Shown here: positions 12,029 through 63,294 of the stretch, piece after piece
Layout of the letters: each line of letters opens with the position of its first letter
Position numbering within the stretch: position 1 is the stretch's first letter
NCBI GenBank assembly: GCA_016839605.1
Contig: JAEOTX010000044.1
Coordinates: forward strand, 42,171-106,170
Reading direction: 5' to 3'
DNA length: 64,000 nt
DNA from: Candidatus Thorarchaeota archaeon
Lineage (GTDB): Archaea > Asgardarchaeota > Thorarchaeia > Thorarchaeales > Thorarchaeaceae
Notes under the pieces: generated by a model
What the model was told of the DNA's origin: nothing
Database searches by the model: none
The model's input: only the letters and a program-made list of their open reading frames with translations
Position numbers and translations under genes: made by a program

Positions 12029-12147
12029 TGCAAACTCAACAAGACCTCAGCTTCGCCTATTCGCTAAGTGTAGTTCGACAGGTTGGAAACCCTAAAAAGG
12101 AGCCTACTTTAGAAGCGAATGTAGATTGCGTGAAGAGAGGATTTTTC

Positions 12148-31935: not shown

Positions 31936-31942
31936 TGTTTTC

Positions 31943-37762: not shown

Positions 37763-37789
37763 CCAATTCATACTCTAGGCGAAACAGAC

Positions 37790-39506: not shown

Positions 39507-39510
39507 GATG

Positions 39511-42229: not shown

Positions 42230-42688
42230 TTGAAACTCAATCCCATGGAGCTTTACAATCTATTACCCAAGACAAACTGCCGTCTATGCGAACCAAAGAC
42301 CTGCATGGCTTTTGCGACTAAGATGGCGCTTGGTGACGTTCTCCCTGATGACTGCCCCCCTCTCCTGGAAGAGGGATTTGAGAAGAACCTTGAGAAGCTA
42401 AGAGAACTTGTCGCTCCGATGCAATCAGCAGAGGAAACTGGAATAAAACTGGATGATTCCAAGTGCACTGGTTGTGGCAACTGTGTTGTTGTCTGTCCAG
42501 TAGATGTAGCCGTCGAGCCTGAAACAGGTCATGGTAAGGCTGGCAAAAGTCGTGACACAGTCTTCATTGTTGAGAACGGGATTTCAAAGATAATCAATCT
42601 GGAGAAGTGCAGGCGATTTCCCCCTGATCGGCTCAATTGCAGAGTCTGTGAACAGTATTGCTGCACAGATGCCATCGAGATTTGGTAG
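42230..42688 (+). CDS. Fe-S protein: N-terminal LPKTNCxxC...C domain plus 2x[4Fe-4S] ferredoxin (FwdG-like)
   Basis: LLPKTNCRLCEPKTCMAFA, CTGCGNCVVVCP, CRVCEQYC. Confidence 0.8.
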   Translation: MKLNPMELYNLLPKTNCRLCEPKTCMAFATKMALGDVLPDDCPPLLEEGFEKNLEKLRELVAPMQSAEETGIKLDDSKCTGCGNCVVVCPVDVAVEPETGHGKAGKSRDTVFIVENGISKIINLEKCRRFPPDRLNCRVCEQYCCTDAIEIW

Positions 42689-42696
42689 GTGATACT

Positions 42697-43932: not shown

Positions 43933-43935
43933 ACA

Positions 43936-44733: not shown

Positions 44734-44912
44734 ACACGCTTTTCTTAAAGTTACACTGTGAACGTTCAAATCGGTGTCATATAATTTACCGAAAGAATAC
44801 GGATTCATTTGGTTAACGATTGATTCGTATACTTGTTCTCGATATCGTTGATGATTCATAACCTTATTATGCTGCTTTTTGTCACGACCAGCATATTAGC
44901 CACAGGGTTTGT

Positions 44913-47261: not shown

Positions 47262-47809
47262 TGGTGATGAGACCAGTACCCTGGCAGACAGGAGAGATTT
47301 GCGGCCCTGACAGTGCAAAATCACTCAACAAGGCCACCCAGCTAAAAAGAGTCTTCACGAAATCAAAGAAACCCCTATTGATTGTGGGATCTGATGCAGT
47401 TGGCATGCCGCATGGGAAGGGTGACATGATTGACTATGCAATAGCCCTTTCAGAGGCTGGTAAGATACCTGTTGTTGCTACTGGAGGCGCAATCAAGGCC
47501 TTTATTGAGAAGGGTTTTGAAGGCGCAAAATCAAAAGGCGCAATGGAATTGGCGAACTACCTTCAGGATGAATCGTGGCCAGGTCCCCATGGAAAGGGAC
47601 CTCACGATTTGATTCTGGTTTATGGTATCCCATACTACATGCAGTGGACGCTGCTATCTGCAGTTATGAACTTTGGGACTCATCTGGCAAAGGTTACCCT
47701 GGGGCGTTATTATCAACCACATGCAGATTGGTCATTCCCAAACATGAAGGAGAAGCAATGGCACAAAACTCTGGATGAAATTCTGGAGTTTGTAGGAGGA
47801 GGTAAGTAA
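47261..47809 (+). CDS. cdhB: CODH/ACS epsilon subunit
   Basis: PWQ, KKPLLIVG, D.SW.G..G.G.HDL, YYQPHADWSFPN; operon position. Confidence 0.92.
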   Translation: MVMRPVPWQTGEICGPDSAKSLNKATQLKRVFTKSKKPLLIVGSDAVGMPHGKGDMIDYAIALSEAGKIPVVATGGAIKAFIEKGFEGAKSKGAMELANYLQDESWPGPHGKGPHDLILVYGIPYYMQWTLLSAVMNFGTHLAKVTLGRYYQPHADWSFPNMKEKQWHKTLDEILEFVGGGK

Positions 47810-47810
47810 C

Positions 47811-49214
47811 ATGTCATTTGAAGACATTCCAGTAGATGTAGGCGTAGTATACGAAGGTGAGCGAGTCCGAGGAAAGGACATGTATGTAGAGCTCGGCGGT
47901 CCAAAAATGGAACAGAAATTCGAACTTGCTCTGGCACGAGAAATGGGCGACATCGAAGATGAGAAAGTCACTGTCATCGGACCCGACTTGAAGGACATGG
48001 AGGAAGGGAGCTATCATCCATTTGGCATCCTAATAGAGGTGGCTGGAAAGGAGATAGAACCTGACCTTGAAGGCGTCATTGAAAGGCGCATTCACGAATA
48101 TGTGAACTTCGTTGAAGGAATGATGCACCTGAACCAGAGATACGACATCTGGATTCGGCTCAACAAGAGGTCTTTCGAAAAGGGATTCAATACCTTTGAG
48201 TTTCTGGGTAAGGTCCTAGTTCGGCTCTTCAAGAGTGAGATGAATATCATTGAGAAAATACAGGTTACGTTCTTCACAGACCCTGAGAAGATAGCCGAAC
48301 GATATGATGAGGCCATAAACAGATACAACGAGAGAGATGCTCGTGCAAGAGGACTCAGTGATCCAGATGTAGACACATTCTACGGATGCTCATTGTGTCA
48401 GTCTTTCGCTCCAACTCACATCTGTGTGATAACACCGCAGAGATATGCAAATTGCGGAGCAATAAGTTGGTTCGATGGTCGTGCAGCCGCAAGAGTTGAC
48501 CCTAAAGGGCCCCTCTATGCAATCTCGAAAGGTGACACGATAGATGAGTTTTCTGGTGAGTACACAGGTGTGAATCAGATCAGCGCGGAGAAATCGCTTG
48601 GTAAGGTCACCTCAGTAGCTCTCTACAGTGCCTTTGACAAGCCACACACAAGCTGTGGTTGCTTTGAGGCAATCGCGTTTGTGATTCCTGAGGTAGACGG
48701 TCTTGGAGTTGTCCACAGAGACTTCAAGGGTGAAACAGTGAACGGACTGCCCTTTTCAAGCATGGCTGACTCCACGGCTGGAGGCCGACAGGTGCCTGGT
48801 TTCCATGGGCTCTCAATAGAGTACATGCGTTCACCTCGTTTCCTACAGGTTGACGGTGGCTATGATAGAGTCGTATGGATGCCTGACTCAGTGAAACAAC
48901 GAATCTATGAGTTCATGCCTGAAGATATCAGAGACAAGATCCCGACCGAGAACGATGTCATGACCATTGGCGATCTCAAGACCTTCCTCAAGGAGAAGAA
49001 CCATCCAGTTGTGGAACGTTGGGTGGAGATTGAGGAGGACGAGACAGCTCTGGCAGAGGTTTCTGATACTGGCGATTATGTTTCTGTACCTGGTGAAATG
49101 ACTGCCATGGTTGGTGGTATTGGTGGCGGCCTTGAAATCATCTTCAAGAATGCCAAAATATACGCTGAGAAGGTCATTATCCGCAAGACAGGGAAGGGTG
49201 GAAAGAAGAAATGA
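47811..49214 (+). CDS. cdhC: CODH/ACS beta subunit (acetyl-CoA synthase)
   Basis: YEGERVR, FYGCSLCQSFAPTHIC, PHTSCGCFE. Confidence 0.96.
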   Translation: MSFEDIPVDVGVVYEGERVRGKDMYVELGGPKMEQKFELALAREMGDIEDEKVTVIGPDLKDMEEGSYHPFGILIEVAGKEIEPDLEGVIERRIHEYVNFVEGMMHLNQRYDIWIRLNKRSFEKGFNTFEFLGKVLVRLFKSEMNIIEKIQVTFFTDPEKIAERYDEAINRYNERDARARGLSDPDVDTFYGCSLCQSFAPTHICVITPQRYANCGAISWFDGRAAARVDPKGPLYAISKGDTIDEFSGEYTGVNQISAEKSLGKVTSVALYSAFDKPHTSCGCFEAIAFVIPEVDGLGVVHRDFKGETVNGLPFSSMADSTAGGRQVPGFHGLSIEYMRSPRFLQVDGGYDRVVWMPDSVKQRIYEFMPEDIRDKIPTENDVMTIGDLKTFLKEKNHPVVERWVEIEEDETALAEVSDTGDYVSVPGEMTAMVGGIGGGLEIIFKNAKIYAEKVIIRKTGKGGKKK

Positions 49215-50404
49215 CGTCCCATGAGGAAGGAAGAGGGCAGTCGCTAGACGACATCTTCGGTGAATTCGCCGAGTTGGAGCTGGAGGATGTCACGATACAG
49301 GTTGACGAACTCAAGCTTGCTCTCCGTCCCATGGTCCAACGGATAGCTCAGGCTGCAGCAAAGGCTGCAATTGAGAGGCCAAAGTCCCTCATACCCACGC
49401 AGCTCAAGGCTCCCCTTGGTGAGTATCCCGGTGTCATTCGGGAGATTACTATTGGGGCCACGAAGAAAGAGGGAGGCTCAAGGAGCAATACCGTGACCAT
49501 TGGTGGTCATACTGCACCAGCATGGGACCTGTTTCAATCACCACCGAAGAATCCACCAATCATAGCGGCTGATGTCTTTGATATGCCTATTCCACTGGCA
49601 AAGGCGGTGAAGACACATTACAGAGAAGTTCTTGAGGATCCCGCAGAGTGGGCGAAGCTCTGTGTGGACAAGTTCGGAGCTGATTTGATAACAATTCATC
49701 TCATCAGTACCGATAGACAACTCGGAGACACATCACCTGCAAAAGCCGCAAAGACTGTCGAGGAGGTTTTACAAGCAGTAAAGGTTCCTGTGCTTATTGG
49801 TTCTGCAGGAGACCCTGAGAAAGACGGTCCTGTCCTAGCAAAGGCTGCAGAGGTGTGTGAGGGTGAACGGACCCTGCTATGTTCGGCTACAATCGATGTC
49901 TATGAACCCGTTGCAGTAGCTGCAAAGGAGCATGACCAGATTGTCTTGTCTTGGACCTCACTCGACATCAATGATCAGAAGGAACTGAACCGAAGGCTTA
50001 TCGAATGGGTAACGCCCGATCAGATAGTCATTGATCCTACAACAGCTGCTCTTGGATATGGTCTTGAATATGCCTTCACCATGATGCAGAGGATGCGTCT
50101 GGCTGGGCTCTTAGGCGACAGCGAGCTACAATACCCAATCAGTTCTGGTACTACAAATGCCTGGGCTGCTAGAGAGGCATGGCTAAAGGCACCTGAACTT
50201 GGTCCGAGAGAACTTCGTGGACCAATCTGGGAGAGTGTGACTGCGTTGTCACTTCTGCTGGCAGGAAACGACCTCTTCATGATGATGCATCCTGCAGCGA
50301 TGAAGACAGTCCATGATCTTATTGAGTGGCTTCGAGAGAGGCGGCCGATACCAGTCGAGGAATACGCAGACTGGACATCAATCGAAATACCGGAGGGGAT
50401 CTAA
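49211..50404 (+). CDS. cdhD: CODH/ACS delta subunit (CFeSP small subunit)
   Basis: DPAEWAK, DPTTAALGYGLEY, NAWAAREAW, MMMHP. Confidence 0.94.
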   Translation: MTSHEEGRGQSLDDIFGEFAELELEDVTIQVDELKLALRPMVQRIAQAAAKAAIERPKSLIPTQLKAPLGEYPGVIREITIGATKKEGGSRSNTVTIGGHTAPAWDLFQSPPKNPPIIAADVFDMPIPLAKAVKTHYREVLEDPAEWAKLCVDKFGADLITIHLISTDRQLGDTSPAKAAKTVEEVLQAVKVPVLIGSAGDPEKDGPVLAKAAEVCEGERTLLCSATIDVYEPVAVAAKEHDQIVLSWTSLDINDQKELNRRLIEWVTPDQIVIDPTTAALGYGLEYAFTMMQRMRLAGLLGDSELQYPISSGTTNAWAAREAWLKAPELGPRELRGPIWESVTALSLLLAGNDLFMMMHPAAMKTVHDLIEWLRERRPIPVEEYADWTSIEIPEGI

Positions 50405-51820
50405 ATGGTCAAACTTCCAGGTCCATTGGACATCTACCCTCTTTTGCCTGGTACAAACTGCGAGGAGTGCGGAGAGGCCAACTGCATGGCTTTTGCAACG
50501 AAGCTCGCCGAATACACGGTGAAGCTTGCTGCTTGTGCTCCTCTCTACAAAGAGGCTCAGTATGTCAAGAAGCTGACCAAGCTAGAGGATCTAATTCGTC
50601 CTCCAGTCAGAGAAGTTGTGATTGGCACAGGTGAAAAAGCTGCTTCGATAGGTGGAAAGCTAGTCCTGTATAGACATGATCTTAGATACTCGAATCCGAT
50701 TGCATTCTTTGTTGATGTAGCTGACACACTTGAGGGCGATGCCCTCTCCCAGAGAGTCAAGGCTATTGAAGACTGGACGTACATGTACATTGGTCAGAAT
50801 CTACGGTTAGATGGAGTAGCACTACGAGGTGTATCACAAGATCCGCAGACTTTTGCTAAGGCTGCAAAGAAATTGTCTGAGCTCACTGACTGGCCAATTA
50901 TCCTATGCTCGCTAAATTCTGAGATGCTGGCCGCTGCAGCTAACGCAATCGCTGATAAGCGACCTTTGCTCTATGCAGCGACACTGGATACATGGTCCGA
51001 TGTTGGAGATATTGCAGTCAAGCACAATCTCCCCTTGGTGGCTTATGCACCAAGCGGGTTAGACGACATTGCAACGCTTGTCAATACTCTGAGAGCCATG
51101 GGAGTAGAGGAAATTGTACTCGATCCAGGCACAGCTTCAAGAGCTGGTCTTGGTACCACTGTTGACAGCTTTACGCAGCTCAGGAGAGCTGCTACACTAG
51201 AGGAGAACGAACTAGTTGGGTATCCACTACTTGCGACTCCAATCTCAGTATGGGCGGACCATAAGGAGGGTGCTGCACCAGAGTTAACTAAATGGGACGA
51301 GGTCCTCACTGCGGCAGCAATGATAGTCCGTTACTCTGATGCAATCGTTGTCCATAGTTTGGACATGTGGACCAATCTGCCACTAACCTTTCTACGAAGC
51401 AATCTCTACACCGATCCAGTCAAGCCCGTAGCCGTTGAGGCCGGACTACAGGAATTCGGTAAGGTTGATGCAGACTCTCCAGTGATGTATACAACAAACT
51501 TTGCGCTTACCTACTTTACTGTAGAGAGCGACATCAAACAGGCTGGCGTCAATGCCTATCTCGTGGTGGTTGATACGGAGGGAATGAGTGTCCAATCCGC
51601 AGTTGCAGGTAGAAGACTGACTGCAGAGAAAGTGGCGGAAAGCCTAGAGGAATACAAGGTGTCTGACAAGGTCAAACACAAGGTTCTCATCAGTCCAGGA
51701 ATGGCCGCGAGAATTAGTGGTGAAACCGAAGAGGTCTCTGGTTGGACTGTCAAAGTAGGTCCCCAGGACTCCAGCGGAATACCCAAGTATCTCCAATCAG
51801 GTAAATGGAAAGAAGAGTAA
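50405..51820 (+). CDS. cdhE: CODH/ACS gamma subunit (CFeSP large subunit)
   Basis: LPGTNCEECGEANCMAFA, YTDP.KPV.VE, TTNFALTYFTVESD. Confidence 0.95.
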   Translation: MVKLPGPLDIYPLLPGTNCEECGEANCMAFATKLAEYTVKLAACAPLYKEAQYVKKLTKLEDLIRPPVREVVIGTGEKAASIGGKLVLYRHDLRYSNPIAFFVDVADTLEGDALSQRVKAIEDWTYMYIGQNLRLDGVALRGVSQDPQTFAKAAKKLSELTDWPIILCSLNSEMLAAAANAIADKRPLLYAATLDTWSDVGDIAVKHNLPLVAYAPSGLDDIATLVNTLRAMGVEEIVLDPGTASRAGLGTTVDSFTQLRRAATLEENELVGYPLLATPISVWADHKEGAAPELTKWDEVLTAAAMIVRYSDAIVVHSLDMWTNLPLTFLRSNLYTDPVKPVAVEAGLQEFGKVDADSPVMYTTNFALTYFTVESDIKQAGVNAYLVVVDTEGMSVQSAVAGRRLTAEKVAESLEEYKVSDKVKHKVLISPGMAARISGETEEVSGWTVKVGPQDSSGIPKYLQSGKWKEE

Positions 51821-51883
51821 GAGGCCATACCTAAACGGTCTTAGGGGCTAAATGCCCCCTCTTTCCTATTGAGAGTAAGAAGA

Positions 51884-52687
51884 ATGAAAGAACGTCTAGT
51901 GATATCTGTGTCTGGCAAGGGTGGAGTCGGTAAGACCACTACTTCAGGACTCCTCTCCAGAATAATTGCAGAGCAGACCCAAAGGTCACTTCTCCTGGTT
52001 GATGCAGATCCAGTCATGAATCTTCCTCGCGCCTTGGGAGTTGATGTTCCAGCATCGGTGGGAGAGATAGCTTCCCAAATGAGGAAGAAAATTGATGATG
52101 GAACACTTCCAGCATCTGCCGCGAAACAAGATATTCTGGAAGGAGAAATCTTTGAAGCACTCATTGAGGGGGACCGTTTTGATTTCTTAGCTATGGGGCG
52201 AACAGAAGGTGAAGGTTGCTACTGTTATGTCAACAGAATATTAACACAGATTCTTGACACACTCACGATGAATTATGAGATTACTCTTCTTGATATGACC
52301 GCAGGTCTTGAGCACTTCAGTCGGCGCACTGACAGGAATGTAGACATCCTCATTATTGTGATTGATTCCTCAAGAGCCGCTTTTGAAGCAGCACTGCGAA
52401 TAAGAGACCTCGCCAAAGAGGTTCATATTGACTTCAAGAAGCTAGTAGTGATTGGAAATCGTATTCCCGCCAATCTTGTTGATGCGGTCTCACAAGGGCT
52501 TGAAGAGAATGACCTCTTTCTAGCCGGAATGATTCCTAATGATGATGAGGTCGCGAAGCTCAATTACATGGGGAAACCGGTTTTCGACCTGCCAGATGAT
52601 TCACCTGCATTTCAGGCCGTTGAGGGAATTGCAGAGAAGCTGGGTCTTCTCAGTGAAGTGACATTGTTGAAATTGTTGGGCCAGTAA
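51884..52687 (+). CDS. Second CooC/AcsF nickel-insertion ATPase
   Basis: GKGGVGKTT, VDADP, GEGCYC, AGLEHFSRR. Confidence 0.9.
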   Translation: MKERLVISVSGKGGVGKTTTSGLLSRIIAEQTQRSLLLVDADPVMNLPRALGVDVPASVGEIASQMRKKIDDGTLPASAAKQDILEGEIFEALIEGDRFDFLAMGRTEGEGCYCYVNRILTQILDTLTMNYEITLLDMTAGLEHFSRRTDRNVDILIIVIDSSRAAFEAALRIRDLAKEVHIDFKKLVVIGNRIPANLVDAVSQGLEENDLFLAGMIPNDDEVAKLNYMGKPVFDLPDDSPAFQAVEGIAEKLGLLSEVTLLKLLGQ

Positions 52688-52693
52688 GACGAA

Positions 52694-53899
52694 TCATTCG
52701 ATATCCTGTATCTCAATTTGCAGGCGCTCAAAAAACTCGCTTGCGGCTATTTGTATTAATTCTGAATCATCCGAGATTGTGTCTATTCTGACTTTGGAGA
52801 TTCCTTCTCCGACCTTTCCAACGAGAGTTATAGTGACGGTCAATCGGGCGTCAGTGAATTTTCCTTTTCCAGTGCCTGCGACAACTCCCATCAACATTCC
52901 GTCTTTGACTGAGGACTCCGTTCTAAGGGAATGAAGGTTATACCGTTCGGACAGTTTCTTTACGATTTTGAAAAGCGTCTTTGCTTCTACCTCAACGACG
53001 TGTTCACGATTCCAAGTAGTCTTTCCTTTCTTCATTGCTTGGAACTCGTCCGCGTTCATCTCAAATGGTTCAATTTGGGAATAGATTGATCTGATGAAGC
53101 AGTTGCCTGATTTTGCGGCAATCCTCTCACCATCACCGTTCACGAAAATCACTGATGATACGATCTCACCTTCAATTGCTTCTGAGTTAACATAGAATTC
53201 GAACTCGACGGATTCGGACTTACCAGGCTTAATTGAAGATATGATCTGCGTTCTTCCATAGGGCTGCAATAGGCTATCTGGAGGAAAGGACAGAATTGCG
53301 ATAGTCACTTCCGAGATGGTTTCAGAAGTCTTATTGGCAATGGTGCTTCTGAACTGCAACTTAGTGTCAGATACTTGGTAGCCATTAGTTACAATGACAT
53401 CGTCACTGGTTCGAATCGGAGTGGCCTCAAGGATTTGCTCTCCTCCCGCGAACAACGCTTCAGGCATCAAAGGTTCGTCGACAACATCCTCGCCACGTGT
53501 CTGTAGCCAGTCTAGAGCGAAGCTAATGGCATCTCTGACTATTTCATCATCGTCAGAGGTGTGTGCTTCTAGGATTGGTATTGCTCTGTTATCAGCTAAT
53601 GAAGCGAGTACTCCTGCGGTCATAGCCCGAATGATTTTACTCTCATCGTTTAGAGCGATATCTAGTGTGTCGAAAGACTTTGAACCAAAATCTCCCAGTC
53701 TGCATACTGCAAGTAGTCTGAGATTTTCCTCTCCCGTTATGGCTGCGTCTTTGCATGCCTGAATCGATGAAATGGTTGCTAGCGCGTTTTCGAGCTTGTC
53801 TTCCTTTGATTTGAATAATCTGCCCATAGCTCTCTTGAAGCCTCCTATTGGGTCGCCACTTTGTGTTGGAGTCGATGTATCATCATCTTTGTCGGACAT
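52694..53899 (-). CDS. HEAT-repeat protein with C-terminal Ig-like plus platform (adaptin/COP appendage-like) domains
   Basis: HEAT pattern LNDESKIIRAMTAGVL and SDDDEIVRDAISFAL, a beta-sandwich (N.T...I.EV.I; I.PG.S.SVEF), then IEP...EF-type platform entry. Confidence 0.6.
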   Translation of the reverse strand: MSDKDDDTSTPTQSGDPIGGFKRAMGRLFKSKEDKLENALATISSIQACKDAAITGEENLRLLAVCRLGDFGSKSFDTLDIALNDESKIIRAMTAGVLASLADNRAIPILEAHTSDDDEIVRDAISFALDWLQTRGEDVVDEPLMPEALFAGGEQILEATPIRTSDDVIVTNGYQVSDTKLQFRSTIANKTSETISEVTIAILSFPPDSLLQPYGRTQIISSIKPGKSESVEFEFYVNSEAIEGEIVSSVIFVNGDGERIAAKSGNCFIRSIYSQIEPFEMNADEFQAMKKGKTTWNREHVVEVEAKTLFKIVKKLSERYNLHSLRTESSVKDGMLMGVVAGTGKGKFTDARLTVTITLVGKVGEGISKVRIDTISDDSELIQIAASEFFERLQIEIQDIE

Positions 53900-54035
53900 A
53901 CTAGGCCTCGCTATTCGTGGTCGTCTGCGCTTGTCTTAATACTTATTGCGATGGCTCAGTCATTTGAGCCTTTCACAACCTTTTTAGCACGGCCTCAGGT
54001 CGGGGCAAATAGAACCGGCTCAAAAGGTGCATTGC

Positions 54036-55163
54036 ATGGAGCAAAGAGATCTTTCACTCTTCCTTCAACCAAAAATAATGAAGCCCCAAGCTGAATATGG
54101 ATCGGAAATCACACGCCGATTTGTTATGAACAAGGTTGGAAGGATGATTGCAGTAGCAATGCAGGACCGAAGTGTTAGACTCTACAACGCACAAAACTGC
54201 GAAGAGATGCAGCGCATCCAAGATGAGTTTCTATGCACATCTATAGCTTTCAGCCCTCAGGGCGATGTTGTTGCTACCGGTGGTGTGGACAGAATCGTCA
54301 AGCTATGGGACATCCGCACAGGAGCCTTGCTTGCTAAGCTGGAGGGTCATACATATCCTGTATTGACACTTGCATTCTCTCCTGATGGTGGTCGTCTTGT
54401 TTCAGGGAGTGGTGATACTACATTGCGCATTTGGGACGTGGGGACTCGGACTGAGCTCAACCATCTAACTGGGCATTCGCTATACGTAGTTACATGTGAC
54501 TGGTCCCCTGATGGCACACGAATAATCTCTGGAGAAGTCGATGGCACAATCGCAGTTTGGGATGCTGATAGTGGACAGCTGTTGAACCGTCTTAAGGACC
54601 ATCGCACTGCAGTCCATGTTGTGAAATTTACACCCGACGGTAAGGGAATGGCTTCGGGTTCTTCAGACCTTAGGATCATCATTTGGAAATCAGACGGCGA
54701 TTCATTCAAGCCAGAACGAACTTTGATGGGACATGATGGCGAGGTTCGAGCGCTTTCATATAGCTGGGATGGCAAGTACATGGCATCAGGATCAAGCGAG
54801 AAGGAGCTCTTTGTCTGGGCTACTGACTCCTACACGATAGAGGGCGAGGGCACAACAGTCAGCGAAATCGATGGCATTGAGTGGTATCCCGATATAGATG
54901 CGTTCATCACTGCTGATGGCTCGGGTGCCATTATCCGCTGGGAGGCAAAGGAGATGCAGGCAATGCTCGCTCCATTCAAGAGTCTACTAGCTGAAATCGA
55001 AGCTGACGCCGATAAGAGCCGTCAGGAAGAGCTCATTCTAAAGTTCAATGACATTTCTGAGCAATTTGATGCAGAAGTCCTCAGAGATAAGCGAGTGTTC
55101 TATATCCTATGGCAATGCAAGAGAGCACTAGGTCTTTTGAAAGGTACACCTAGACGAGCCTAG
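54036..55163 (+). CDS. WD40 beta-propeller protein with short helical C-terminal domain
   Basis: Repeated GH...(F/W)SPDG...SGS.D..IW motifs, about 7 blades. Confidence 0.93.
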   Translation: MEQRDLSLFLQPKIMKPQAEYGSEITRRFVMNKVGRMIAVAMQDRSVRLYNAQNCEEMQRIQDEFLCTSIAFSPQGDVVATGGVDRIVKLWDIRTGALLAKLEGHTYPVLTLAFSPDGGRLVSGSGDTTLRIWDVGTRTELNHLTGHSLYVVTCDWSPDGTRIISGEVDGTIAVWDADSGQLLNRLKDHRTAVHVVKFTPDGKGMASGSSDLRIIIWKSDGDSFKPERTLMGHDGEVRALSYSWDGKYMASGSSEKELFVWATDSYTIEGEGTTVSEIDGIEWYPDIDAFITADGSGAIIRWEAKEMQAMLAPFKSLLAEIEADADKSRQEELILKFNDISEQFDAEVLRDKRVFYILWQCKRALGLLKGTPRRA

Positions 55164-55168
55164 CATCA

Positions 55169-55723
55169 TCAACTGTTTCTGTTTGCTTCTGTCGCTCGGG
55201 CCTTTCCTTCCATTAGGATGATTCTACAAAGAGCAAAATAGGCTTCCTCTACGTTCTCCCCCGTGAGTGCACTAGATTCAACATATAGGAATTTGTGCTT
55301 CTTGGCATACTTCTCGCCTTCTTCTCTTGATACAACCCGGCTGTCTGCAAGGTCTACCTTGTTGGCCACAACTATAAGCGGGATTGGATTGGCTAGATTG
55401 GAGAAACATTCATTCTTCCAATTGTCAATGTTGAGAAATGTACGGCGGCGAGTAACGTCATATACTAAGAGCCCTCCACGAGCACCTCGATAGAAGCCCT
55501 GGCGGACCGTTTCAAAACGCGGCTGCCCGGCGAGATCCCAAACAACACAGGTCACACTGGCATTCAGGTCTTTCAGCTGAAGGTCCTTGAGGGCGAAATC
55601 TGTGCCAATGGTTCTCTTGTAGTCCGCCTGAAATCCTCCTTCGGTGAACCTAATCGTCAGTGCGGTTTTCCCCACTGCACCATCACCTAGCATAGTGATT
55701 TTCAGGCGATACTCACCCGGCAT
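55169..55723 (-). CDS. Rab-like small GTPase (Ras superfamily)
   Basis: GDGAVGKT, TIGTDF, WDLAGQ, NKVD, ESSAL. Confidence 0.93.
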   Translation of the reverse strand: MPGEYRLKITMLGDGAVGKTALTIRFTEGGFQADYKRTIGTDFALKDLQLKDLNASVTCVVWDLAGQPRFETVRQGFYRGARGGLLVYDVTRRRTFLNIDNWKNECFSNLANPIPLIVVANKVDLADSRVVSREEGEKYAKKHKFLYVESSALTGENVEEAYFALCRIILMEGKARATEANRNS

Positions 55724-55916
55724 TCAGTGGTCTCCTAGCCCTTTCAGATTACTGAAACCCTCTTTTAATTGTAATGCGGCATCATGCTGGGTTACGAGCC
55801 ATCTCTCATCCGACTGTATTTTAGCTGGTTTCAAAGAATCTGCCACTTTGATAATAGACTGCCCAGCACGTTTAATAAGGAAATGCGCAAATCGTTTCCC
55901 GCCAAGGGATGATGCT

Positions 55917-56306
55917 ATGACCTCAGAGCGCCCGGACTATCGAGCTTTGACTGAAACGTTAGAGGAGATGAACAAGGAGGGCGGATTTACTACGTCGGTC
56001 CTTGCGAGAGATGATGGTCTGGTCATGGCTTATGCTGTGTCCCCCACTACCAATATTGATGTAGTCGCTGCGATGGCTGGACACATCGCAGACACAGTTG
56101 AAAGGGTCAGAAATGAGCTCTCACTGGGAGAGACCAAGGACATTTCCGTGCGATGCTCTGAAGGGAAAGCGGTATTCAGAAGGATATCATCTCAAGGTAA
56201 TCAGGCATTGATTCTTGGCACAATTATGCCCAAGAATGTGCGCTATCATTCAAGAGCAGTTGGCAAGGCTGCAACTAAGATTAGGAAGATACTGAGATTT
56301 AGATGA
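55917..56306 (+). CDS. Roadblock/LC7 (MglB-like) protein
   Basis: 129 aa with SVLARDDGLVMA and VAAMA. TTTAATAA box at 55871. Confidence 0.88.
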   Translation: MTSERPDYRALTETLEEMNKEGGFTTSVLARDDGLVMAYAVSPTTNIDVVAAMAGHIADTVERVRNELSLGETKDISVRCSEGKAVFRRISSQGNQALILGTIMPKNVRYHSRAVGKAATKIRKILRFR

Positions 56307-56401
56307 TATCCGACGTTTGCTATCTGACTAGGTCGTCAAAACTATTAAGTTACTTATTTTGCTTCAAGTTGATAATCCCTAGGCGTAGGAGTGCCATTTT
56401 T

Positions 56402-56740
56402 TTGGCTGATGATGCAGAACCAAAGAAATCCCCGAAAGGGGAGGACGAAGAAGAGGACGATCCTGTTGAGGTAGTCCTATTCAAGTCTGATTCATGTGCG
56501 TTCTGCCCAAGGGCTGAAGAGGTGCTGAGAGAGACTCTTACCGATTTCGGAGGAGGATTCTTCGTTCTGAAAGTCATCAATGTGAGCGAGAATCCCGAAG
56601 CGGCAGAGGAGTTTGGAATCTTCGCACTGCCTACTACTATGATCGGTGGTGTTTCAGTGACGGGAATTCCAGAACCCGATATGATAATGAAGATGATTCT
56701 GGGAGCGAAAGTGAGTTCCAAAAGAGGTGCATCCAAATGA
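56402..56740 (+). CDS. Thioredoxin-fold protein with CxxC (KaiB-like middle segment), acidic N-terminus
   Basis: TTG start with AGGAG upstream. CAFC, LKVINVSENPEAAEEFGIFALPT. Confidence 0.8.
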   Translation: MADDAEPKKSPKGEDEEEDDPVEVVLFKSDSCAFCPRAEEVLRETLTDFGGGFFVLKVINVSENPEAAEEFGIFALPTTMIGGVSVTGIPEPDMIMKMILGAKVSSKRGASK

Positions 56741-57483
56741 GTGATTTCGTTATAGAGAGAGTAAAGACCGGGATTCCAGGGTTGGACGAGCTAATTGAGG
56801 GAGGATTCCCCAAAGGTGATACAATCCTCCTCGCGGGACGAGCAGGGACAGGAAAGAGCATCATGGCAAACCAGTTCCTGTACAATGGAGCAACAGAGTA
56901 CGATGAACCAGGAGTTCTTGTGACTTTGGAGGAATCTCCACATCTGATAAAGAGAAACATGATGAGGTTTGGAATGGACCTGGATGCGCTAGTAAAGAAG
57001 AAGAAACTTGCTATTGTGGACCTGTCTCCTTCAAAGGAGGCCACACCGATGAAGATTGGCGAATATCCTAGCTTTGACCTCTCTGGCTTGGAAGCGATTA
57101 TCCTCAATCATGTCAAGAAGCTGGGTGCCAAACGTGTAGTGATTGACACACTTGCTATTCTAGCATACAAGTTTCGAAGCCGGGACATCTTGCGGGAGGA
57201 GTTCTTCAAGCTTGCAGCCAATATAACTCGTGCAGATACAACTCTTATCCTGACAAGTGAAATTCAATCTCAACATGATGGTCTCGGCGTGTTTGATATC
57301 GAAGCATTCTTGGCCAGCGGCGTTATTGTACTCTACAATGAGATGATTAGCGAAACATCTCGGTCAAGGTCGATAGAAGTATTGAAACTCAGAGGTTCAA
57401 AACACAGCTCGCGAATCCATTCGATGAGGATAACAGACGAAGGCATCAGAGTATGGCCAGCAGAAATCAGTACTGGAGTATAG
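56737..57483 (+). CDS. Single-domain KaiC/RAD55-family ATPase (CI-like)
   Basis: TGIPGLDELIEGGFP, GRAGTGKS, TLEE, VVIDT, EVLKLRG. Confidence 0.9.
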   Translation: MSDFVIERVKTGIPGLDELIEGGFPKGDTILLAGRAGTGKSIMANQFLYNGATEYDEPGVLVTLEESPHLIKRNMMRFGMDLDALVKKKKLAIVDLSPSKEATPMKIGEYPSFDLSGLEAIILNHVKKLGAKRVVIDTLAILAYKFRSRDILREEFFKLAANITRADTTLILTSEIQSQHDGLGVFDIEAFLASGVIVLYNEMISETSRSRSIEVLKLRGSKHSSRIHSMRITDEGIRVWPAEISTGV

Positions 57484-57509
57484 AATCCGAAAAACTTGAG
57501 GCGTGACTC

Positions 57510-58220
57510 TTGGGTGAAGAAACGAAATCAAAAAGCACCGAACCTCCACCAGTTACTGCACGGCCAATGATTGGGGATCTGGTTAAGTTCGGTCAGCTCA
57601 CACAGGTTTCCTACATACTACTTGGCCCTCTCGGGGCGGGAAAGACAACATACGCTGAAGCTTTTCTTTACGACGGTCTCAAGCTTGGATTCCCTGCAGT
57701 ATTTGTGACAACTGATGTCTCTCCTAGAGTCATCAGGAATGATATGAGCCGACATGGTTGGTCAATTGACGAGTATGAGAATTCAGGTCAGTTTGTTTTC
57801 ATTGACGGCTATTCTGAACGCATGGGTGCACCAATGTCAAGCACTGTCCACTCCCTTGCCAAGATTGATGACATTAGTGAGCTTGGAATTGTACTGGCTG
57901 ATGTATTAGACCGCCTGGTTGTTTCTCGTGTTGTGGTAGACAGTCTGTCCACACTTATTCTTCACTCAAATCCCGTAACAATGCCGAGAGCTGTCCAAAG
58001 ACTTAGTGGCAGAGTTACTCAAAGTTCGCATAGTATAATGTTCATCCTTGAGGAAGGCGTCCATGAAGAGAAGACCTATGCAACATTCTCGTACATGGCA
58101 GATGCAGTCCTTAGATTCAAGATAGACGATGATGGTGATCTGCCTAATCACAAGGTCCGGATGGAGCGAATGCGTGGTACGGACACATCAAGAGTCTGGA
58201 ACGACTTCGTTCTAGAATGA
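57510..58220 (+). CDS. Single-domain KaiC/RAD55-family ATPase (degenerate catalytic EE)
   Basis: GPLGAGKT, TTDVSP in place of xxEE, VVVDSLS, FSYMAD, ERMRG. Confidence 0.85.
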   Translation: MGEETKSKSTEPPPVTARPMIGDLVKFGQLTQVSYILLGPLGAGKTTYAEAFLYDGLKLGFPAVFVTTDVSPRVIRNDMSRHGWSIDEYENSGQFVFIDGYSERMGAPMSSTVHSLAKIDDISELGIVLADVLDRLVVSRVVVDSLSTLILHSNPVTMPRAVQRLSGRVTQSSHSIMFILEEGVHEEKTYATFSYMADAVLRFKIDDDGDLPNHKVRMERMRGTDTSRVWNDFVLE

Positions 58221-58293
58221 TGAGTCCTTTCTGTGAAGACTTTAAAGCGATATGTTTCCTCGAAGAGCTGAGATTGGAAGAGGAGAGTCCAAC

Positions 58294-60591
58294 GTGGAGT
58301 CTTTGTTGATTGCGACACTGAGAGATGTTCTATGTTCATCACTTTCTCTTGATGATGGTCTCTCCGCAATTCAGAATCTGGCAATAGGCACCACGAGTGA
58401 AAATGAGCTGTTATTTGAGATCGCCCGTGTAATTGAGGAGATCATTCTTCGTAGGCCTGGCCTGGCTAGTGCCAAACTTACTGAACTGACTGTCCGTCTA
58501 TCCTTTAATGAGGACCGCGTTCTTCCTGAGATGCTCTCTCTTCTGGATGTTCGCTACACAAACAGCTTCCGTCGAAGTGAAACTGAACTACTACCTGATA
58601 TTGAGGCAATACCTCAACTGCTTGATATCCTGGGTCAACTAGCACAATCAATGACTGCCGCCCTAAATCTCAATCTGAGACCTCTATTACCTTTCTTAAC
58701 TGACGAAGTATCGATGATACTGGATGCCATTATAACACGAGGACACGAAGCTTCCACAGCCTTAGCTATTCATGAGGTGCACTATCTTACCAGCATCTTG
58801 ATTCAAGAGGGCTTTTTTGTTGGTGCCGAGCTCTTGCTCAACCGGCTTTCAAAGATCACAGCTAGATTGGGAAATCAGGATCTTCTCTTCGAAACAATGT
58901 TCGATTATTCATGCGTGCTCACAGAACTTGGAATGTTTCAGGAATCAAGAAACATCCTTCATGATCTAGAGAAATCCGTTGGTGCCGATCCTGACAAAGA
59001 ACGCCTTGCAGCTGTTGTTCTTCAATTGGGAGTAAATGACACGCGTGACGATGCGGTCCATCATGAGGATGCACGGGCTGTCAGTGATAGGGCCGCACAG
59101 CTGTATGAAGAGAGTGGTGATCCCTTTCCCAGAACTAAGGATGATATTGGTCTGGCTCATCTCATCATTGGATCAAGTATTCTTGCGAATGGTTGGAGAG
59201 AGGGTGTTCCTGAGGCAATAGACCGCCTAGAAAAGGGTCTTCAAGTCTATGAACGGATTGAGGCACCCAATTTTCATCAATCCCTTCACTTGTTCAGAAT
59301 TCTAGCGGGACTCGGTTTCGCTCATGGCCTTTTGAGTGACCATGACAATACTGGGAAGAGTATTGAGTATCTAGAACGAGCCAAGGCCATTTTAGAACAA
59401 ATGGAATCCTCTGGTCATGACATGGCAGTGGACTTAGCAAGGGCTGAGAATACGTTGGGTTGGGTGTGTCTGAGTACCGAATCAGATGAGTATTGGGACA
59501 TAGGAGTTGCTGCCTTCCAACGTGCGATTCAACTACGTGAAGCACTTCAAAAAAGGGGTAGGGTATCTGAGCTGGAAATCTTGGGCAGCAAGCTTGGCCT
59601 TTCATTATCCATGATGCGGTCTCATGAATATTCTGATGAAGCTCAGAGATCACTGCGAGAAGTGCTTGTTCAGTTCGTTCCCCTATTTCCTACAGATCCT
59701 CGTGCTTTTGTCGAGGTGGCGATAGCAACTTACAATGTTGTCTGGATTACTTTCCGACATGGAGAGAAGCTCCCCCCTCGGGTCTTACGTCTGCTAGATG
59801 ATATAGACAGACTCCTAGCGGATGCTAGGGCTCAGGATGATTCGATATTTGTGCAAGGAGTTTCTTTGGTGCTTCCATATCTAGATGAATCTTGGTCTGT
59901 TTTGAAAAGCCGTGCAAGCAACCTTACTACTCACCGATCCGACCTATCGAGGGTCGGGGTTTTGATGGAAGCTCTGTCAACTTCCAAACTCAATCAGGAA
60001 TCGGTCAATCTAGGACCCACAGCTCGGATTGAGGACCCTGTCACGACCAGAGTCGAAGAGATTGATGCACTTCTTGCCATGTACTGGAGGGGGCAGACAG
60101 CTCTGGCGGAAACAGTGAAGTCCTTTTTCGAAAATCAGGACTATAGCAACCTTGCCACAGGGCTGTATCGTGCAGCGCTTTCGCTTCGAACCGTAGGTGT
60201 AGTTGAACCCTCATTTTCAGAGTCTACCGAGTTTATTCAAGCAACATGCGTATCACTTTCAGATGTTCTTCTCCGATTTGCTCTTTCTCTGGAGAATCAG
60301 TATGATGCTGTAATCGACCGGGACCGGTTCGAAACATTCCCCGAGAGCGCGGATCGAGGTCAATATCAATTCATTCTTGCTGATGACTGGCTAGGCTTAG
60401 TGAAAATAGCAGATGCCTATCTCCAGATGGTAGAGCAATCCGAGATGGTTGAAGCAAAACCCTATCTCAATGCAGTGTTTTCGAATATCTCACGTGCCCT
60501 CAGGATGATGGATGACATATCAATGGTCGATAGAAGACTGCTCTCAATGCTTGGCGAAGTTATGAATCGTAGGTACTATCTTCGGAGCTAA
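58294..60591 (+). CDS. Large alpha-solenoid / TPR-like protein
   Basis: Helical repeats such as LAGLGFAHG..SIEYLERAKAI and LARAENTLG...AFQRAIQL. GTG start with AGGAG upstream. Confidence 0.7.
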   Translation: MESLLIATLRDVLCSSLSLDDGLSAIQNLAIGTTSENELLFEIARVIEEIILRRPGLASAKLTELTVRLSFNEDRVLPEMLSLLDVRYTNSFRRSETELLPDIEAIPQLLDILGQLAQSMTAALNLNLRPLLPFLTDEVSMILDAIITRGHEASTALAIHEVHYLTSILIQEGFFVGAELLLNRLSKITARLGNQDLLFETMFDYSCVLTELGMFQESRNILHDLEKSVGADPDKERLAAVVLQLGVNDTRDDAVHHEDARAVSDRAAQLYEESGDPFPRTKDDIGLAHLIIGSSILANGWREGVPEAIDRLEKGLQVYERIEAPNFHQSLHLFRILAGLGFAHGLLSDHDNTGKSIEYLERAKAILEQMESSGHDMAVDLARAENTLGWVCLSTESDEYWDIGVAAFQRAIQLREALQKRGRVSELEILGSKLGLSLSMMRSHEYSDEAQRSLREVLVQFVPLFPTDPRAFVEVAIATYNVVWITFRHGEKLPPRVLRLLDDIDRLLADARAQDDSIFVQGVSLVLPYLDESWSVLKSRASNLTTHRSDLSRVGVLMEALSTSKLNQESVNLGPTARIEDPVTTRVEEIDALLAMYWRGQTALAETVKSFFENQDYSNLATGLYRAALSLRTVGVVEPSFSESTEFIQATCVSLSDVLLRFALSLENQYDAVIDRDRFETFPESADRGQYQFILADDWLGLVKIADAYLQMVEQSEMVEAKPYLNAVFSNISRALRMMDDISMVDRRLLSMLGEVMNRRYYLRS

Positions 60592-62687
60592 TAGACTGGT
60601 TCCTCTTCATCGTCTGCTCCGACCTTTCTAAATCCCCCAGGCTTTGCACCCCACGTAGCCCAACCAGATGTCGAAGTTCTGATCTCCCTTGCAAGCCCGA
60701 AAGACTCGCGCACTGGAATCTCGGCGTTTATGCGGTATAGGGACCTCTCCGAGTCGATTTCATGCACTCTTCCCTTTCTTCTCGCGAGAATCGCGGTAAG
60801 CTCGCCTACATGTTCTTCAGGCGCACTAATCTCAAGTCGCACCCAAGGTTCCAACGTCTGAGGGTTCCCGGATGCCACACTACATCTCATGGCTTGAATT
60901 AACGGATTAGTCACATCTCTCCAAGATGTTTCTGGTGCCTCGAATCTAAGCTGCACCTCTTTTATTATGATTGCGAGGTGCCGGAGCCTTTCCCCACTAG
61001 AAGGGCCGCTCCGGACAAGTGCCCTGAATGCTTCTCTAATCCATTCAAGCTCCTCACCGTAAGGATTGATTTTGCCTGTTGAGTCCAAGAGATAGCACCC
61101 GCCCATCGGTTCAGAGTCGAGGAGAGTTCCATATTCTTCTGCCTTGAATCCTTCCTCTGGGAGAATGGCTTGAACAGTGAAGATACTTGTAGAGTCATCC
61201 CCACTTTTGCATGATATTCCATCCCTTGTCATCTGCTCTTTGAGGAGAACCATTGGTTTGCCAATCACAACTTCAATTCCCTGTCGAGCGAGCTTCTCGA
61301 TGCTCACCTCGATGTGTAGCTCGCCTGCGCCAGAAAGAAGCATTTCCCCAGTTTCCGGATTAACCTCAAACTCCAGAGCAGGGTCTGTCATTACATATTG
61401 GGATATTGGCTCCTGAATCTCACTGAGCTGAGACAGTTTCTTCGGCTCAATAGAGTATGTGACTACCGGTTCTGTAGGGTATTCGAGTTCCATCATTGGT
61501 GAGATGCCTTCAGCGCCCTTTGTCACAAGAGTATCTCCTACAGCGATATCCTTGATACCTGTGATGAATGCAAGATTCCCTGCAGGAACTTCAGGAAGTG
61601 CTATTCTAGACTTAGACATGAAGATGCCAACCTGGAGCGATTTCCCCTCTTTTCCAGTTCTAAGATTAATCAGTGGTTCTGCACGGTTGAGAGTCCCTGA
61701 GAAGACTCGAACTGCAGCAACAAGTCCTGCGTGTCTGTCTGGTTGCACATCCCCCACAAGTAGAACAGCCGGGCCATCACTGCTAGATTCTAGAAGGCTC
61801 TTGTCATGTTCGCCACCTTGTTGTGTCCAGAACACCGGAAGACGATAAGACTGGGCTACAGTCGGATCGGGAACCGTCTTGACAACCGAGTCCAATAAGA
61901 CCTTGGCGATAGGATATTTCTCTGTCAAGCTACCTTCCTCTTCCCTTGAGTAAGATTCAACTACTTCCTCCAGTATCGCAATGAACGCATTAGCCAAGTC
62001 ACCTTTAGCTTCACTTCCTCCAGCAGCTTTATTCAGAACTGACAGATCTAATCCCCACTTATGCAGCGCCGAACCTATGCAAAGTGACGATTTGTTGAAT
62101 GATACTTCCCACTTTTCTAGAGAATCATCATCAAGATACTTGCCTAACATCGCGTTGAATTCCCGGACAGTCTTGTTAATCTCCTCAGCTACTCGCTTAG
62201 CATCTAGCCTTCTCTCTTTGATGAGCCGATCAACCTTATTGACGAATAATATAGGACGCACAAGCTCGCTCATTGCTTGTCTTGAAACCGTTTCAGTCTG
62301 GACCATTATTCCCTCAATGACATCGACAACGATGATCGCCCCATCGGTGAGTCGCAGTCCTCTTGTGACATGGCTAGAGAAGTCGATGTGTCCTGGTGTA
62401 TCAATTAAATGAATGAGATAGTCCTGTCCATCTAGTTCGTGAATAAGTGATATGCCCGAAGCCTTGATTGTAATTCCTCGTTCCTGTTCTATCATATCAT
62501 AGTCCAAAAGACGCGCCGTGGCGGCTACTTCCTTCGACAAAAGTCCGGATGATGCAATGAGTGAATCGGTAAGTGTGGTCTTTCCGTGGTCAATGTGAGC
62601 TATCACAGTGCAATTCCGAATCCGAGTTGTTTTATCTATGAGCGCTACAGCGCGTTCATTGACGAATTTCTTGTAGATATGTGACAC
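60588..62687 (-). CDS. Elongation factor 2 paralog (aEF-2p), no diphthamide motif
   Basis: AHIDHGKTT, ERGITIK, DTPGH, NKVD, GAGELH, LEP, RTSTSG. Domain IV is shortened and lacks HRG. Confidence 0.85.
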   Translation of the reverse strand: MSHIYKKFVNERAVALIDKTTRIRNCTVIAHIDHGKTTLTDSLIASSGLLSKEVAATARLLDYDMIEQERGITIKASGISLIHELDGQDYLIHLIDTPGHIDFSSHVTRGLRLTDGAIIVVDVIEGIMVQTETVSRQAMSELVRPILFVNKVDRLIKERRLDAKRVAEEINKTVREFNAMLGKYLDDDSLEKWEVSFNKSSLCIGSALHKWGLDLSVLNKAAGGSEAKGDLANAFIAILEEVVESYSREEEGSLTEKYPIAKVLLDSVVKTVPDPTVAQSYRLPVFWTQQGGEHDKSLLESSSDGPAVLLVGDVQPDRHAGLVAAVRVFSGTLNRAEPLINLRTGKEGKSLQVGIFMSKSRIALPEVPAGNLAFITGIKDIAVGDTLVTKGAEGISPMMELEYPTEPVVTYSIEPKKLSQLSEIQEPISQYVMTDPALEFEVNPETGEMLLSGAGELHIEVSIEKLARQGIEVVIGKPMVLLKEQMTRDGISCKSGDDSTSIFTVQAILPEEGFKAEEYGTLLDSEPMGGCYLLDSTGKINPYGEELEWIREAFRALVRSGPSSGERLRHLAIIIKEVQLRFEAPETSWRDVTNPLIQAMRCSVASGNPQTLEPWVRLEISAPEEHVGELTAILARRKGRVHEIDSERSLYRINAEIPVRESFGLAREIRTSTSGWATWGAKPGGFRKVGADDEEEPVY

Positions 62688-62694
62688 GAGCTCT

Positions 62695-63294
62695 CTACCT
62701 GACCATTTTCTTGTAATCAGACATAGAGATAGTGATCTCCTCTTTACATTTTCCACACGCAAAGGTGACACTGACTTTTTGCAGCCGAACTTCATCTTTC
62801 AGAGGCTGACCACATTTACATGCAAAGCCTGCAATTCCAGCTGGATTGCCAACAACCAATGCGTGAGCCGGAACATCCTTTGTGACAACCGCCCCGCTAC
62901 CGATCATGCAATAATTCCCAAGTACGATTCCACAGAGAATGGTGGCATTCGCTCCAATCGAAGTACCACGCTTGACGAGTGTGTCTGTTATCTCCCAAGA
63001 ATCACCATACGCTCTTGGATACAAATCATTGGTGAACGTCATATGTGGTCCGCAGAATACGTCGTCTTCTATTGTGACACCTTGATAGACTGATACGCCA
63101 TTCTGAATCTTCACATTATTTCCGATGACCACGTTTGCATCAACATACACATCTTTCCCGATGATGCATCCACTGCCAATATTGGCTGAGCTCCTGATAT
63201 GGGCAAAGTGCCAGACTTTCGTTCCTTCACCAATCTGTGCCCCCTCATCAACAACAGCCAGGGGGTGGATGAAGACGTCAACCATTGAACTCAC
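62695..63294 (-). CDS. Hexapeptide-repeat N-acetyltransferase (WbpD-like) with C-terminal Zn ribbon
   Basis: IHPLAVVD, KVWHF, FTND.YPR, IGANATI, VVGNPA, CKCG...CGKC. Confidence 0.88.
   Translation of the reverse strand: MSSMVDVFIHPLAVVDEGAQIGEGTKVWHFAHIRSSANIGSGCIIGKDVYVDANVVIGNNVKIQNGVSVYQGVTIEDDVFCGPHMTFTNDLYPRAYGDSWEITDTLVKRGTSIGANATILCGIVLGNYCMIGSGAVVTKDVPAHALVVGNPAGIAGFACKCGQPLKDEVRLQKVSVTFACGKCKEEITISMSDYKKMVR

Follow-up and report, generated by a model that had tools for sequence, protein, structure and literature searches.

Few small GTPases of Asgard archaea have both a crystal structure and a measured activity. Thor-Rab of Candidatus Thorarchaeota SMTZ1-45, which can be produced in E. 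coli, is among them; no partner of this protein is known. In the parts of the report considered here, its Arg37 is equated with the intrinsic arginine (Arg53) of MglA and described as missing from other Thor Rab paralogues, and the pairing of Asgard GTPases with their regulators from genome layout is called difficult (Tran et al. 2024, PMC10933270). From a preprint, again considered in part, a conserved Asgard operon of a roadblock protein (LAMTOR1-like), a Rab-like GTPase and a DENN protein is known, which was proposed to be a nucleotide-exchange module (Liu et al. 2021). Here we describe the surroundings of a Thor-Rab ortholog (GTPase1) in a 64-kb stretch of contig JAEOTX010000044.1, in the following the window, from a Thorarchaeia metagenome-assembled genome that is 80% complete. 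The locus names candidate partners of Thor-Rab: a roadblock protein, two KaiC-like ATPases (KaiC1 and KaiC2), a thioredoxin-like protein (Trx), a TPR-like alpha-solenoid, a WD40 propeller, a second Rab-like GTPase (GTPase2) and a protein with an adaptin-type ear (ear protein). In our best reading, a Thorarchaeial gene neighbourhood ends in this stretch, and its conserved core is a cytosolic nucleotide switch.

Five genes of the plus strand, from the roadblock gene (first) to the solenoid gene (last), are joined by 4-bp overlaps or gaps of 26–31 bp, with the start of the Trx gene overlapping the roadblock stop and KaiC1 overlapping the Trx gene by 4 bp. They look like one operon. Two sets of loci were compared, 13 anchored on the ear gene and 17, from 15 genera, anchored on the solenoid gene. 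The five-gene set is present in all 17 solenoid-anchored loci and in 10 of the 13 ear-anchored ones; two of the remaining three reach a contig edge, and the third is a rearrangement (G018). A roadblock ortholog is found in each of these 17 and 10 loci. GTPase1, divergent from the roadblock gene, is accompanied by WD40 and GTPase2 in 16/17 solenoid-anchored loci, and in the same number GTPase2 adjoins either the WD40 or the ear gene. The preliminary description of this DNA had suggested that components of a GTPase-regulated membrane coat are clustered here in 8 kb, an idea that it would have given up if gene order were not conserved and pairwise interactions were missing. The order of GTPase2, WD40, GTPase1 and the genes from roadblock to solenoid is kept in 16 of the 17 loci.

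The sister family is represented by one genome (G025), in which GTPase1, roadblock, Trx, KaiC1 and KaiC2 follow each other in one direction, with overlapping reading frames of GTPase and roadblock, and are succeeded by an EF-2 paralogue. Solenoid, WD40 and ear genes are absent from this locus, and the genome lacks WD40 along with the solenoid. The GTPase, roadblock, Trx and two KaiC genes therefore form the core at the level of the order. The solenoid occurs in 79 of 87 genomes of the class and in 16 of 17 genera, compared to 0/1 genome of the sister family; it is restricted to the window's family and is a family-level addition to the KaiC operon.

The genes of the WD40 protein, GTPase2 and the ear protein are further additions, each of which can be lost. 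The ear protein was found in 48 of the 87 genomes and in 7 of the 17 genera, and a full ear gene in 4/17 solenoid-anchored loci, with one further 59-bit remnant. Where present, the gene always occupies the same spot between GTPase2 and WD40. WD40 lies beside it in 8 of the 13 ear-anchored loci and is missing in the other five, all of the window's genus. There, GTPase1 immediately precedes the ear gene in the same orientation, and the open frames overlap in 3/5. Elsewhere in these five genomes (77–92% complete) no WD40 ortholog was detected at E ≤1e-30, in a search that had no positive control of its own. The 59-bit remnant belongs to a member of the window's own genus (G003:C17, L042, 10712–11029), lies at the expected spot between WD40 and GTPase2 and carries one in-frame TGA; it looks like gene decay in one member of the genus.

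The proposed switch is also favoured by another Asgard family (G146), in which a Ras-family GTPase gene is surrounded by four genes of the KaiC family, including a GvpD-like one. At G146:C28:8000-24000 (L051), positions 3778–12577, a response regulator, a GvpD/KaiC-like ATPase, the Ras-family GTPase and a KaiC are encoded on one strand. Two KaiC-like genes on the other strand come next, followed by genes for a 285-aa protein and a PAS-rich histidine kinase.

In comparison with the PDB, GTPase1 matches Thor-Rab (7EZB) over residues 1–174 with E 5.8e-85 and 286.6 bits. Eukaryotic Rab11, Rab18 and Rab8 come next, with E from about 1e-40 to 1e-36, as well as Rab14 and Sec4, so that the G domain is closest to those of Rabs, as expected of a member of the Rab family. 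Judged by this sequence match, GTPase1 and the crystallised Thor-Rab are orthologs. Within 27 orthologs, R37 is nearly invariant and Q67 invariant. None of them has a cysteine in the C-terminal tail, where Rabs are geranylgeranylated; the only conserved cysteine is C166 within the last helix.

The roadblock protein has its best solved relative in LAMTOR2 (E 1e-4), and the Asgard roadblock structures 7yh1 and 7f8m match at E 2e-3 to 4e-3. Of the Kai-like genes named in the preliminary description, two belong to the KaiC family indeed, whereas the supposed KaiB-like gene encodes a thioredoxin fold of redox type. Its C65-x-x-C68 motif is invariant in 28/28 sequences, conservation sets in only from residue about 55 onward, and among the NCBIfam models the MJ0307-family thioredoxin fits best (E 1.8e-12). 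KaiB was rejected as its identity due to this invariant motif and to scores of 21–24 bits with KaiB models, the cut-offs of which are 27 to 145. KaiC1, a single-domain KaiC/RadA-like ATPase, has GRAGTGKS as its Walker A motif, carries TLEES as well and is highly conserved among 28 sequences. KaiC2 is a divergent single-domain KaiC-like ATPase with the Walker A motif GPLGAGKT and TTDVS in place of TLEES; its ortholog in the sister family is 51% identical, and identities outside the class are ≤34%. The acidic residues of the TLEES-type motif are catalytic in KaiC. This acidic pair is absent from KaiC2, and KaiC1 looks active as far as its motifs tell.

The folds, the orthology to Thor-Rab, the layout of the operon and its phyletic and syntenic pattern are established here, and a mechanism can be proposed on top of them. 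The roadblock protein, probably a dimer, would control which nucleotide state the GTPase is in, comparable to the action of MglB on MglA and of Ragulator on the Rags. ATP-dependent input would be supplied by the KaiC pair and redox-dependent input by the thioredoxin-like protein, if it is redox-active as its motif suggests, and the TPR protein could be the scaffold of the assembly. The GTP-bound GTPases would recruit the separately transcribed WD40 propeller and, in lineages that have it, the ear protein too, which might gather further partners. Such a cytosolic Rab/roadblock switch, coupled to KaiC and accompanied by effector or adaptor genes that can be dispensed with, seems to us about equally likely to hold or to fail. 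If GTPase and roadblock protein work with the KaiC pair, archaeal KaiC hubs and eukaryote-like small GTPases would be joined. Adaptin-type ears in archaea are already published; a coupling of KaiC to a Rab-like GTPase and a roadblock protein was not found in print, and our literature searches gave no paper in which KaiC, Asgard archaea and small GTPases are treated together.

Several findings weigh against the switch. Gene order is conserved into unrelated genes on both flanks: beyond GTPase2, a family-B DNA polymerase follows in 16/16 loci, with a nickel-insertion protein beyond the polymerase in at least nine, and on the operon side conservation extends to the EF-2 paralogue (17/17 loci), a hexapeptide transferase and an AsnC regulator. 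Because unrelated housekeeping genes are held in the same block, conserved order is weak evidence for joint function, and the adjacency of WD40, GTPase2 and ear gene may be inherited regional synteny. The structure of the operon and the arrangement in the sister family weigh more than conserved adjacency. In the rearranged locus G018, the breakpoint falls precisely between the GTPase1 and roadblock genes, which shows that this pair is not inseparable. Furthermore, the match of the roadblock protein to LAMTOR2 is weak, and MglB is not among its matches at E ≤0.01. Finally, Thor-Rab without any partner shows a GTPase activity similar to that of Rab11B, according to the sections considered of Tran et al. 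2024 (PMC10933270).

The split in G018 was also considered as evidence for grouping GTPase1 with WD40 and the ear protein. This was rejected, as GTPase2 of this locus has retained the polymerase and nickel-insertion genes at its flank; since the polymerase has kept this place, the case is a single breakpoint in a syntenic block. The window itself contains these conserved outer neighbours, i.e. a LarC-type nickel-insertion gene and a family-B DNA polymerase gene at 30586–34222, which adjoin GTPase2 in other genera. At the other end, the EF-2 paralogue (60588–62795, minus strand, 735 aa) converges on the solenoid gene, their stop regions overlapping by 4 bp. With 485.9 bits vs a cut-off of 738 for aEF-2, it is a divergent translation GTPase, and it is the most persistently linked neighbour outside the operon, the sister family included.

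GTPase2 of the window is 72–87% identical to GTPase2 of nine other loci, compared to 40–43% identity to GTPase1 (tblastn), and is the ancestral left neighbour of the cluster. Only in the window's genus is it about 15 kb away from the rest; in other genera it is the direct neighbour of the ear gene. The intervening stretch (37763–52693) carries a FwdD-like gene, subunits of carbon monoxide dehydrogenase/acetyl-CoA synthase (CODH/ACS), namely CdhC and two of the CdhD family, and a CooC/MinD-like ATPase.

The block that is kept across genera from the nickel-insertion and polymerase genes to the AsnC regulator may also be read as inherited synteny for the most part. Only the set of roadblock, Trx, both KaiC and possibly the solenoid genes, perhaps with GTPase1, would then be a functional unit, with WD40, GTPase2 and the ear protein as unrelated neighbours that have separate tasks in a region of slow rearrangement. 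We consider this possible, though rather unlikely. WD40, GTPase2, GTPase1 and ear genes lie on alternating strands in transcription units of their own, the ear is confined to 7/17 genera, WD40 has been lost from 5/13 loci, and CODH/ACS genes are part of the roughly 15 kb that separate GTPase2 in the window's genus. Genes for small GTPases, WD40 and roadblock proteins are moreover very numerous in Asgard archaea, according to the parts considered of two reports (Eme et al. 2023; Liu et al. 2021), and chance neighbours are therefore expected. Less easily reconciled with such chance are two Rab-like GTPases, a propeller and an ear, i.e. classes that bind each other in eukaryotes, within about 4 kb, as well as the insertion of the ear gene always between GTPase2 and WD40. 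The conservation of GTPase2 (72–87%) is also unusual in comparison to the 29–45% identity of the ear protein across genera.

Returning to the proposed switch, its possible scaffold and effectors were examined individually. According to its AlphaFold2 model (33 helices; predicted local distance difference test score, pLDDT, 88.4; predicted TM score, pTM, 0.79), the solenoid resembles a generic TPR superhelix. Among the Foldseek matches listed are Ctr9, Ski3, the TPR of LGN/Pins (TMt 0.54–0.72), OGT and IFT-A, the best E being 1.6e-6; coat solenoids (clathrin, Sec31, COPI) do not occur among the listed top matches of the 779-residue model, which was searched whole. Only clusters with generic TPR labels were retrieved from the ESM Atlas, at a recognition value too low to be reliable. 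The family is tiny, with 19 matches, 3 of them full length, in 1.84 billion representatives.

The WD40 protein consists of seven WD-like repeats, as read from the sequence, and a conserved helical tail of roughly 65 residues, and a propeller–solenoid fusion is absent. The solenoid gene lies four genes away in a different transcription unit. The most invariant part of the protein is located outside the propeller, at residues about 352–375 of the tail (window 55090–55163), where F358, Y359, W362, C364, L368, G369, L370, L371 and K372 are identical in 25 sequences. With this pattern, the C-terminal tail could be a docking motif.

The gene set was checked with a listing of open reading frames (ORFs) together with Pfam and NCBIfam profile scans and is collected in Table 1. 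Every gene of the earlier inventory is confirmed by the ORF listing and Pfam, and its parts (adaptin/COPI-type ear, propeller, Rab-like GTPase, roadblock, alpha-solenoid) had been named correctly at the level of the fold. The gap of 136 bp given for the divergent adaptin-like and WD40 genes is exact when WD40 starts at ATG 54036, the Met of which is nearly invariant among 25 orthologs; the longest ORF begins with a GTG 9 bases earlier (54027). WD40 and the Rab-like GTPase converge as described, their stops lying 5 bp apart, and the GTPase diverges from the roadblock gene across a spacer of 193 bp with the roadblock start at ATG 55917. A 220-aa roadblock ORF that overlaps the GTPase1 gene was rejected, the true start being this ATG (129 aa). 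The ear, WD40 and GTPase1 genes alternate in strand and therefore form a separate transcription unit each, which bears out the mixed orientation and with it the earlier statement that the cluster is not one operon. A scan for bacterial-type promoters and terminators gave 12 vs 10.3 and 8 vs 6.3 in shuffles, bacterial models being uninformative for an archaeon. No convincing transmembrane segment was seen in any protein of the set.

Table 1. Genes of the cluster, with positions in the 64-kb window.
Gene product	Position	Strand	Size and supporting match
GTPase2, second Rab-like small GTPase	37196-37762	+	tblastn with GTPase2 proteins of 9 other loci
HEAT-hinge-ear protein ("mini-adaptin")	52694-53899	-	401 aa; HEAT_2 E 1.2e-7
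WD40 propeller	54036-55163	+	WDR3-type whole-propeller model E 1e-59
GTPase1, Rab-like	55169-55723	-	184 aa; Pfam Ras E 2.1e-48
Roadblock/LC7 protein	55917-56306	+	129 aa; Robl_LC7 25.3 bits, cut-off 23
Thioredoxin-fold protein (Trx)	56303-56740	+	Pfam Thioredoxin_3 E 3.2e-7
KaiC1	56737-57483	+	248 aa; Pfam KaiC E 7.1e-70
KaiC2	57510-58220	+	236 aa; Pfam KaiC E 1.6e-28, DUF7504
TPR-like alpha-solenoid	58252-60591	+	779 aa, without Pfam family; all-helical model

The AlphaFold2 model of the ear protein, built on 31 orthologs (pLDDT 81.6), begins with a disordered, basic stretch (residues 1–40), followed by about three HEAT-like repeats (44–135). A disordered hinge (141–158, pLDDT <50) connects these to the second folded part, composed of a beta-sandwich (163–271) and an alpha/beta platform (276–400). 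The N-terminal helix is conserved, basic and moderately amphipathic, with a hydrophobic moment of 0.56. The coatomer-beta appendage platform is matched in Pfam as well, though below threshold (E 6e-3). In the Foldseek search against the PDB, ranks 1–16, of which 15 are listed, are all COPI or AP2, mostly appendages, with E from 3.9e-12 to 1.4e-7. Because all top matches are of this kind, the adaptin/COPI-type ear is genuine, and the modelled domain order HEAT–hinge–ear is that of adaptin large subunits. The HEAT trunk resembles designed alphaRep/HEAT proteins and is thus generic; Pfam finds no Adaptin_N match in the protein at E ≤0.01. By the lack of a long HEAT trunk, the protein departs from the AP/COPI large subunits. 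Neither a second large subunit nor longin-type medium or small subunits were found among the Pfam-scanned neighbours, a genome-wide search for them not having been made.

Ear paralogues are numerous in the window's family and occur fused to SBBP propellers, a family-5 solute-binding domain or Zn ribbons, or as tandem duplicates. The ear is regarded as a general interaction module. An ear expansion was observed at G020:C18:41000-49000 (L047) and at L048, L049 and L046, including three tandem genes of 372–421 aa, of which one carries a LysW-like Zn ribbon and a second faintly matches an NZF-type zinc finger. Other paralogues comprise 798 aa with two ears, 1199 aa with SBBP propeller repeats and 945 aa with the family-5 solute-binding domain. 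A word-indexed protein search with ear residues 150–401 gave no longer relatives; this blank is due to the method, as the six-frame genome search finds them.

Archaeal ears have been described before. Adaptin/COPI C-terminal domains in Asgard proteins are reported in the considered part of the preprint by Liu et al. 2021. In the excerpts considered of Eme et al. 2023, a figure legend gives five AP domains as "not fused to each other", and Table S3 lists 33 Alpha_adaptinC2 candidates from Lokiarchaeales, Helarchaeales and Sifarchaeia. The invariant five-residue motif of the ear protein has no match among those rows of Table S3 that are listed, which does not amount to its absence. Makarova et al. 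2024 (PMC10936438), in the passages considered, describe such ears from ESCRT loci in several orders of archaea and trace them back to the last archaeal common ancestor. Data S3 of a structural survey from 2026 (PMC12962969) contains two Thorarchaeial models with beta-COP (COPB1) as best SwissProt match, either of which might belong to the ear family.

Two further interpretations start from this protein. The HEAT–hinge–ear protein, WD40 and the two Rab-like GTPases might form an adaptor system that is recruited by the GTPases and stands under a timer or redox sensor made of roadblock, KaiC and thioredoxin-like proteins; we regard this as improbable. If true, adaptor recruitment would have a pre-eukaryotic relative, with an adaptin-type ear already downstream of a Rab-like switch, and a first link between KaiC-type ATPases and small-GTPase control would be given. 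Should the ear protein be a GTPase effector, this would bear on the origin of adaptor complexes.

The proto-coat, in which Rab-like GTPases under roadblock control would recruit the ear adaptor, WD40 and the TPR solenoid as a cage-like scaffold to a membrane in order to bend or sort it, is very improbable: it can draw on a true adaptin/COPI-type ear behind a HEAT stub and hinge in adaptin domain order, on an ear gene transcribed divergently from the propeller gene, on the conserved amphipathic N-terminal helix and on the conserved neighbourhood, but its components are separately dispensable, the solenoid resembles generic TPR scaffolds and is part of the KaiC operon, the propeller is not fused to it, the HEAT stub has about 90 residues without Adaptin_N, no longin-type subunit occurs among the Pfam-scanned neighbours, and neither a transmembrane segment nor a lipidation cysteine on the GTPases is present. 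In addition, archaeal ears are widespread as general interaction hubs tied to ESCRT loci, according to the parts considered of Makarova et al. 2024 (PMC10936438), and fusions with a solute-binding domain and with SBBP propellers occur in the window's family, too. With the coat-like parts separately dispensable and their order shared with housekeeping genes, the neighbourhood alone is no ground for a proto-coat. The membrane coat suggested by the preliminary description is thus not supported, and its parts do not act like a single machine: the ear is limited to 7/17 genera, WD40 is lost from 5/13 loci, the solenoid resembles generic TPR proteins and is absent from the one sister-family genome, and a membrane anchor is missing.

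Compared to known systems, the core resembles MglA/MglB and Ragulator (LAMTOR)/Rag, where a small GTPase stands beside a roadblock gene as it does here (divergent in 16/17 loci, co-directional in the sister family). Neither of the two is known to carry KaiC-like ATPases or a thioredoxin-like protein. The cores also differ from MglA and Rag, that of GTPase1 being Rab-like and the similarity of the roadblock protein to LAMTOR2 being weak (E 1e-4). R37 of GTPase1 resembles the switch I arginine of MglA, an equivalence taken from the considered part of Tran et al. 2024 (PMC10933270). With Thor-Rab itself (7EZB, 7EZD, 7EZE), GTPase1 has Arg37 and the missing C-terminal prenylation cysteines in common; the gene context of Thor-Rab is not described in the considered sections of that paper, whereas the ortholog in the window has conserved roadblock and KaiC neighbours. 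The pairing of roadblock and Rab-like GTPase is shared with the operon of Liu et al. 2021, as far as the preprint was considered, with DENN as partner there and thioredoxin-like, KaiC and TPR proteins here.

A KaiABC clock is not encoded: its KaiC has two domains (CI and CII) in one protein, in contrast to the two separate single-domain genes found here, the scores of which stay well short of the circ_KaiC cut-offs, and KaiB is likewise not found above cut-off. The archaeal KaiC signalling hubs, reportedly put forward by Makarova, Galperin and Koonin in 2017 (as cited in PMC5847659), are said to consist of single-domain KaiC-family ATPases in operons with small sensor or adaptor proteins, which corresponds to the arrangement here, with one of the ATPases divergent.

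The ear protein shares with the adaptin/COPI large subunits the flexible hinge and the bipartite appendage (Ig-like beta-sandwich and alpha/beta platform), at 9–13% identity to the appendages of beta-COP, gamma-COP and AP2 alpha/beta2 (9qpq_H, 1pzd, 1b9k, 1e42). An adaptin trunk (Adaptin_N) spans about 500–600 residues, compared to about 90 here, with HEAT_2 at 57–129 only. A protocoatomer combines propeller and alpha-solenoid in one chain or a tight pair, in contrast to the separate genes of this locus. The ear fold is common to the archaeal ear proteins in print, and Zn-ribbon-tailed and multidomain paralogues exist in the window's family as well. In the published parts considered, these ears are tied to ESCRT-I/Vps28 fusions, Zn ribbons, GOLD domains and propellers, whereas here HEAT repeats and both ear lobes form one chain, the gene of which stands next to those of Rab-like GTPases. 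The locus can thus be regarded as a variation on known kinds of system, namely switches of small GTPase and roadblock protein, ear-domain proteins of archaea and hubs of KaiC-like ATPases.

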